Source: Escherichia phage PhiR63_2
Sequence record: PV340574.1
Direction: 5' to 3' (one strand)
DNA: 48,138 bases
The notes under the pieces were generated by a model. It was not told the DNA's origin. It made no database searches and saw nothing but the letters and a program-made list of their open reading frames with translations. The stretch's first letter is position 1. The number at the start of each line of letters is the position of its first letter. The translations under genes and the position numbers were made by a program. Positions 17,806 through 18,790 of this stretch are shown here, piece after piece.

Positions 17806-18302
17806 TGCCTCCATCATTACGAAAAGCCGTTGCTGCTGCTATTGGTGGCGGAGCAATTGCTATAGCATCAGTGTTAATCACTGGCCCAAGTGGTAACGAT
17901 GGTCTGGAAGGTGTCAGCTACATACCATACAAAGATATTGTTGGTGTATGGACTGTATGTCACGGGCATACAGGAAAAGACATCATGCTCGGTAAAACGT
18001 ATACCAAAGCAGAATGCAAAGCCCTCCTGAATAAAGACCTTGCCACGGTCGCCAGACAAATTAACCCGTACATCAAAGTCGATATACCGGAAACAATGCG
18101 CGGCGCTCTTTACTCATTCGTTTACAACGTGGGTGCTGGCAATTTCAGAACATCGACGCTTCTTCGCAAAATAAACCAGGGCGATATCAAAGGCGCATGT
18201 GATCAGCTACGTCGCTGGACATATGCTGGCGGTAAGCAATGGAAAGGTCTCATGACTCGTCGTGAGATTGAGCGTGAAATCTGTTTGTGGGGTCAGCAAT
18301 GA
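17805..18302 (+). CDS. R: SAR endolysin (lysozyme, R21/RrrD-type)
   Basis: N-terminal signal-anchor-release segment ([18 protein letters not shown]) followed by a lysozyme domain; matches phage 21 R / DLP12 RrrD. Confidence 0.9.
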
Positions 18303-18700
18303 ACAGAGTAACCGCGATTATCTCCGCTCTGGTTATCTGCATCATCGTCTGCCTGTCATGGGCTGTTAATCATTACCGTGATAACGCCATTACCTACAAA
18401 GCCCAGCGCGACAAAAATGCCAGAGAACTGACGCTGGCGAACGCGGTAATTACTGACATACAGATGCGTCAGCGTGATGTTGCTGCGCTCGATGCAAAAT
18501 ACACGAAGGAGTTAGCTGATGCGAAAGCTGAAAATGATGCTCTGCGTGATGATGTTGCCGCTGGTCGTCGTCGGTTGCACATCAAAGCAGTCTGTCAGTC
18601 AGTGCGTGAAGCCACCACCGCCTCCGGCGTGGATAATGCAGCCTCCCCCGACTGGCAGACACCGCTGAACGGGATTATTTCACCCTCAGAGAGAGGCTGA
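18299..18700 (+). CDS. Rz: Rz i-spanin, frameshifted at its 3' end
   Basis: Residues 1-115 match lambda Rz; after the C5 tract at 18645-18649 the ORF continues in the Rz1 frame (...[16 protein letters not shown]), while the expected Rz C-terminus ([23 protein letters not shown]) lies in another frame ending at 18759. Confidence 0.7.
18520..18669 (+). CDS. Rz1: Rz1 o-spanin lipoprotein, embedded and truncated by the same frameshift
   Basis: Embedded +1 frame [44 protein letters not shown] then TGRHR*; lipobox LVVVGC present; the C-terminal 16 aa of lambda Rz1 are instead appended to Rz. Confidence 0.5.
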
Positions 18701-18790
18701 TCACTATGCAAAAACAACTGGAAGGAACCCAGAAGTATATTAATGAGCAGTGCAGATAGAGCTGCCCATATCGATGGGCAACTCATGCAA

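Follow-up and report, generated by a model that had tools for sequence, protein, structure and literature searches.

A one-base shortfall in the C tract shared by the overlapping Rz and Rz1 spanin genes of an Escherichia coli lambdoid prophage is probably an assembly artefact

The whole stretch of DNA that was analysed, 48,138 nucleotides of Escherichia phage PhiR63_2 (PV340574.1) and referred to below as the window, reads C5 at 18645-18649, where its relatives read C6. The missing C is most likely an assembly artefact, to which we assign a probability of about 0.68: a long G/C homopolymer would have been called one base short through a consensus or base-calling error, and in the biological prophage the tract would probably be C6 and the embedded Rz/Rz1 spanin pair intact. 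The error would then be a technical one in this particular genome. This reading is favored by the skew among the changes private to the window (three deletions in G/C runs and a single substitution), by the finding that all four single-base deletions are in G/C runs and none in A/T runs, by the absence of C5 from the best-matching complete genomes listed, and by the fact that error-ridden assemblies and deposited sequences of the lambda right end show this call as well. Alternatively, replication may really have slipped at C6 in a decaying prophage passed on vertically, which would leave a normal holin and endolysin and no functional spanin; we regard this as possible but unlikely, and the evidence on it is given below together with that for the artefact.

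The window is a lambdoid prophage integrated in icd, with its left end overlapping the icd end and an icd remnant near 48 kb, and it hardly differs from the prophage found in ST95-type ExPEC/APEC strains such as UTI89, S88, APEC O1, IHE3034 and BEN2908. About 190 complete genomes carry this prophage, and positions 1-12345 of the window are 100% identical to K56-43-un and FDAARGOS_1257. The cargo is intact throughout and consists of the sitABCD iron/manganese transporter (42620-46069), the bor homologue iss (18791-19084) and an ompC-like porin gene (15919-17061). The lambdoid lysis cassette occupies 17590-19084 in the gene order S-R-Rz/Rz1-bor, with bor/iss on the opposite strand, and all of its genes have strong Pfam matches and matching annotation in near-identical relatives. 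Its features are as follows.

17590-17805, plus strand: holin S (phage 21 / EssD type), intact, 71 aa; Pfam PF04971 Phage_holin_2_1, E = 2e-35; essD in relatives.
17805-18302, plus strand: endolysin R (RrrD type lysozyme), intact, 165 aa; Pfam PF00959, E = 1.3e-45; rrrD in relatives.
18299-18700, plus strand: chimeric Rz ORF, 133 aa, Rz 1-117 followed by Rz1 45-60; from translation and Pfam.
18519-18668, plus strand: truncated Rz1 ORF, 49 aa, 44 native residues followed by TGRHR; from translation and Pfam.
18645-18649, plus strand: C5 tract (C6 in relatives), a single-base difference from which the changes in both ORFs follow; from sequence comparison.
18649-18759, plus strand: stranded native C-terminus of Rz, 36 codons and a stop in the third frame; from three-frame translation and residue count.
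18791-19084, minus strand: intact lipoprotein gene bor/iss, adjoining the lysis cassette downstream; Pfam PF06291, E = 1.1e-30; iss in relatives.

Rz1 is embedded in the +1 frame of Rz, and its ORF lies wholly inside the Rz ORF. Translation from the ATG at 18299 to the stop at 18700 gave native Rz up to residue 117, identical to intact RzpD, and then the exact C-terminal 16 residues of Rz1, while the Rz1 ORF was native through P44 and ended with TGRHR and a stop codon. The chimera is visible in Pfam within one ORF, which matched the Rz profile (PF03245, E = 2e-34) at positions 1-90 of 126 and then the Rz1 profile at positions 24-40 of 41. Translation and Pfam therefore agree with the first-pass annotation, which had described Rz as fused to the Rz1 C-terminus, Rz1 as truncated and both subunits as abnormal. 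It was also right that a single C was lost, although the ancestral tract was C6 and is C5 only now, not C5 before the loss. Likewise, the native C-terminus of Rz is indeed displaced to a third frame ending at 18759, but it comprises 36 codons, of which about 20 follow the new stop codon, and not the 22 that had been counted.

When the two products were compared with what is expected of a spanin pair, the i-spanin part had the N-terminal transmembrane domain and the Rz-family periplasmic domain, and its C-terminal half (CC2 and the C-terminal domain) was incomplete, with 36 native residues swapped for 16 derived from Rz1. This half was complete again once the single C was restored. The o-spanin is encoded, as expected, by an embedded +1-frame lipoprotein gene, with the lipobox LVVVGC, a PPPPP stretch and a match to Pfam PF06085 (E = 7.8e-10); it is not intact through W46, the native sequence ending at P44 and the Pfam Rz1 profile being covered only at positions 1-25 of 41. 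Insertion of one C gave a 153-aa Rz and a 60-aa Rz1, each an exact match to a protein (RzpD and RzoD, respectively) found on at least 1000 contigs. Because the relatives are otherwise 100% identical and the effect of the one-base difference is deterministic, chance is not at issue here.

The 551-bp Rz region of the window was compared with complete E. coli genomes. The best 40 matches listed, which include UTI89, S88, APEC O1 and IHE3034, all span 552 bases, and this span corresponds to C6. No 100% match to the 551-bp region was found in the complete E. coli genomes, and among the matches listed none of the best-matching complete genomes with this prophage has C5.

Comparison of the whole window with its relatives revealed four single-base deletions, C5 to C4 at 15781, C6 to C5 at 18649, C7 to C6 at 39531 and G5 to G4 at 40929, leaving aside 13055, which is an alignment-edge effect at the boundary of an IS200 insertion. 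Apart from the Rz tract, the features concerned are the following.

15778-15781, plus strand: C4 (C5 in relatives), intergenic, with Q on one side and the porin gene on the other; ExPEC XM is the sole record that shares it (1/2499 records).
39526-39531, plus strand: C6 (C7 in relatives) in J, the ORF at 36347-39619 encoding 1090 aa instead of 1160; from comparison with relatives.
40926-40933, plus strand: fibre gene G4 (G5 in relatives) and an extra A at 40933; private to the window.

All four events were in G/C runs, and none of the approximately 200 A/T runs of at least 5 was changed. Private substitutions amounted to one (22994) over 47,433 comparable positions, that is, those covered by at least three relatives, with 24 related loci pooled. 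Over these 47.4 kb, the differences were thus mostly homopolymer deletions of one base and not substitutions, as expected of an artefact. Besides one substitution and one IS200, the window's own branch has three G/C-run deletions and an insertion located 4 nt from the fibre deletion. Mutation-accumulation data of E. coli give approximately 0.06-0.1 indels per substitution, and the Poisson probability of at least three indels beside one substitution is 3e-5 to 1.5e-4 at this ratio, or 0.08 at a ratio of 1:1. Real slippage would need three or four independent events on a branch with a single substitution, and, the intergenic C4 apart, these events are not shared with the sampled close relatives. 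The C4 at 15781, on the other hand, is common to the independent assembly ExPEC XM, and may be inherited or a repeated miscall. ExPEC XM is nearly identical over the first 20.7 kb, but its Rz tract is C6, its J tract C7 and its fibre tract G5. When runs of at least 5 were counted by strand, 3/12 C runs, 1/39 G runs and 0 of approximately 200 A/T runs were shortened, a strand skew in numbers too small to be interpreted.

The variant in the fibre gene looks like a local consensus error. The deletion and the extra A restore the frame after 4 nt and change GGG AAG to GGA AGA (K to R), and a deletion and an insertion so close to each other are hard to obtain by natural mutation. No match to this variant was found in the complete E. 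coli genomes searched, and its protein was absent from the protein collection.

The first-pass annotation had pointed to a second event of the same kind in J, and this was confirmed by the C6 at 39526-39531 against C7 in relatives, which shortens J from 1160 to 1090 aa. The 70 C-terminal residues that are lost would include the receptor-binding region. The truncated J of 1090 aa matched exactly on 10 contigs, both clean and error-prone, and the J C6 allele was present in L019, L020, L023 and L026, four assemblies in which all other long runs are clean. The truncated allele is therefore probably real in some lineages, and its occurrence in clean assemblies is a point for real slippage. Within one strain, the tract varies with the assembly: EcN_Sk has the window's length, and would thus have C6 judging from the length match, whereas two Nissle 1917 assemblies have the longer form; this variation counts in favor of an artefact. 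A SNP linked to J C6, which would show identity by descent, was sought and none was found, since the J nucleotide haplotype of the window is identical to that of C7 and C6 carriers alike.

The same C5 call recurs elsewhere. A 71-mer with C5 was found exactly in 40/4437 matching E. coli records and 3/375 phage records, six C5 contigs were found in IMG/VR against at least 117 with C6, and the exact 133-aa fused protein of the window was found on 17 contigs. This recurrence would be expected if the tract really slips, but the same calls are found in assemblies that are clearly error-ridden. The fused-Rz assemblies L005, L008, L009 and L010 have 9-23 indels per 20 kb, with split terminase, portal, protease or capsid genes. 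CP121347.1 combines the fused Rz and the truncated J with six further homopolymer deletions splitting sitA, sitC, Z and I, and the G6, C6 and A7 sites shortened there are also affected in four other assemblies. Each of the four tracts shortened in the window is shortened in at least one error-prone assembly, including those at 15781 (L010) and 40929 (L021).

In other carriers a real lesion is plausible. RefSeq 98E11 (NZ_AP027181) and O26 RM8426 (NZ_CP028116) have C5 with rzpD flagged as 'frameshifted' by PGAP, and the surrounding 18 kb contain no other frameshift; the prophages concerned are damaged by an internal stop in terminase, or by insertions of IS3 and IS66. That the RefSeq carriers of C5 sit in prophages with independent real lesions argues for real slippage in these cases. 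C5 is present, too, in the phage PhiR30_1 (grown on E. coli C), on which no paper was found. PhiR30_1, 98E11 and RM8426 are 94-95% identical to the reference, which is too divergent for a homopolymer census to split error from variation. In addition, a 152-aa lambda-type Rz (P0003) on 115 contigs from JGI, Logan and ENA contains the C5 shift and a compensating shift in a (GA)n repeat just before the Rz1 stop, so that 15 native residues are replaced by 14 Rz1-frame residues.

The first-pass annotation had held that related phages sharing the fused Rz architecture would speak against its reading. Such carriers formally exist (40 RefSeq records, three phage records and 17 contigs), but they are scattered, recurrent and often poor assemblies, and no lineage that conserves the fusion emerges from them; a functional reading of the fusion is therefore not rescued. 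As to its two alternatives, a spanin defect or an under-call, between which it had leaned toward the under-call because of J, the present results support this framing, and the lean is strengthened by the G/C-run skew and by the recurrence.

Deposited sequences of phage lambda provide another instance of the same call. OR974322 was deposited as a 'phage Lambda isolate' whose source was a chicken swab. All of its differences from J02459 lie at or beyond 45037, and its sole indel is C6 to C5 in Rz. The differences include 45352 G>A, which we take to be Sam7. OR974321 consists of a 3.46-kb piece of the right end alone and has C5, and four IMG/VR contigs (L028-L031, metagenome 3300049043) hold the lambda block 45042-48488, all with C5; in two of the four the stored locus does not cover the whole block, and L031 has two further insertions. 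Within 45042-48488 the C6 of Rz is the only G/C run of at least 6, and the T7 and A6 runs are correct. This block is presumably a sequencing control amplicon, and the control molecule itself might truly be C5. The probable control block thus circulates in databases as environmental phage sequence, also inside larger 'viral' contigs, with C5.

The tract owes its fragility to dual coding. Enumeration of 6-mers showed that only CCCCCC and CCCCCA preserve both S-P-R of Rz and P-P of Rz1. The two-frame overlap therefore forces CCCCC[C/A], and synonymous change cannot break the run; because one gene is embedded in the other, a one-base change at the run damages two genes at once. The 124 IMG/VR loci comprised at least 117 with C6, six with C5 and one with C5A. 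By keeping the tract in place, dual coding would also maintain a standing slippage hotspot, which is in favor of real slippage, and at the C run (>=5) in the Rz/Rz1 overlap, which is unusually prone to being called short, miscalls and true slippage alike recur.

Genuine decay is found in the relatives, which also bears on real slippage. BEN2908 has an internal stop in L, IS66 insertions were found in relatives of this prophage, and the window has its own IS200. Lesions of individual strains further include a frameshifted portal gene in BEN2908 (L004), besides its stop in L, and a K gene frameshifted at a G6 run in ExPEC XM (L151). The window's insertion is an IS200-family element at 12346-13050 between ren and ninB (Y1_Tnp transposase, Pfam E = 1.9e-36), and GmM077 has an IS200C elsewhere in the same prophage. 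At the ren-ninB junction, IS200 was absent from all sampled relatives and from the six fused-Rz contigs that reach the junction (L005-L010). Per-strain damage to this prophage, real or technical, is common. Against real slippage, loss of the spanins would bring no evident benefit to the host, as holin and endolysin would still kill the cell.

We also considered a switching role for the C tract, as a phase-variable locus toggling both spanin subunits or as a recoding site at which ribosomal or transcriptional slippage restores some full-length Rz and Rz1, and find this highly improbable. The tract is conserved, C5 occurs at approximately 0.4-0.9% in public data, and P0003 pairs C5 with a second, compensating shift; however, conservation forced by dual coding is fully explained by the two protein sequences, the C5 carriers are scattered rather than lineage-structured and many of them are plainly errors, and a single off state was seen, with no C7 among the 124 IMG/VR loci. 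Both lengths within lineages, with expansions as well as contractions, would be expected of a phase-variable locus and were not observed. Appreciable slippage in transcription takes runs much longer than C5, and T-CCC-CCG does not fit the canonical X-XXY-YYZ pattern of slippery heptamers; recoding on C5 was rejected on these general grounds of a short run and no canonical heptamer. It is equally improbable that a slippage-driven switch inactivates both subunits in a small fraction of lambdoid prophage copies; if it did, induced populations would be mixtures of lysis-proficient cells and cells that retain the outer membrane and trap virions.

If C5 were real, Rz would lack both its C-terminal domain and CC2, the second coiled coil, which the published domain map places at residues 121-150, and Rz1 would be without native residue 45 onward. 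Spanin-null lambda gives spherical cells and no lysis in 10 mM Mg2+. Cells induced for a prophage with a real C5 would accordingly round up after murein degradation and free virions only with shear or low divalent cations. In the genetic analysis of Cahill et al. (PMC5295617), Rz nonsense alleles gave a lysis defect wherever they lay up to codon 152, and so did Rz1 W46X, whereas truncation of Rz1 at 55 was tolerated. Since the window has native Rz only to residue 117 and native Rz1 only to residue 44, these published alleles predict that both truncations would be null, which agrees with the spanin loss assumed under real slippage. Together with the truncation of J, this would give a non-infectious cryptic prophage kept for iss and sitABCD.

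Taken at face value, the record describes a spanin-null, J-truncated, defective ExPEC/APEC prophage. Because the prophage carries the virulence cargo iss and sitABCD, this reading would affect conclusions on its inducibility and mobility, and the C5 call should not be trusted without reads. The phenomenon is already known either way, as PGAP flags the identical frameshift in other genomes, and, if real, the lesion is an ordinary, already catalogued prophage pseudogene. Neither the dual-coding fragility nor the circulating lambda block is a new biological mechanism; what the analysis offers is a caution for annotation, an account of the fragility of the tract in terms of dual coding, and a note on the probable lambda control sequences.

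Among known systems, the closest is the two-component spanin Rz-Rz1 (rzpD-rzoD) of lambda, phage 21 and DLP12, which has the same gene order S-R-Rz/Rz1-bor as the window and whose Rz and Rz1 Pfam families both match it. With one C restored, the Rz region of the window would equal that of phage 21 (OL657228); as written, its 551 bp align with 552 bases of phage 21 at 99.8% identity, the C tract being the sole difference. Unlike these systems, the window as written (C5) encodes neither full-length subunit. The rzpD pseudogenes of RefSeq 98E11 and RM8426 share with the window the identical 71-mer at the tract and have a fused 133-aa product (P0004) of the same architecture. They differ in lying in other prophage backgrounds (94-95% identical) of other pathotypes and with independent inactivating lesions, whereas the prophage in the window otherwise hardly differs from its intact relatives.

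For the artefact, the system to compare is that of long-read homopolymer errors. Residual errors in long-read assemblies are mostly false homopolymer deletions, which fragment genes (PMC12007338). Like these, the window has deletions of one base in runs of at least 5, and at tracts that are also affected in independent assemblies of this prophage. Survival of errors only in multi-copy segments that short reads could not polish was considered and set aside, the G6 runs in the tail genes, which would also be expected to be multi-copy, being intact. Unlike clearly unpolished long-read assemblies, the window has events in G/C runs only and none at A7, T6 and G6 sites; the errors seen at G6 45541, A7 43883 and C6 46032 in unpolished assemblies of this prophage do not occur in it, which counts against an artefact. 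If technical, the error profile of the window is mild.
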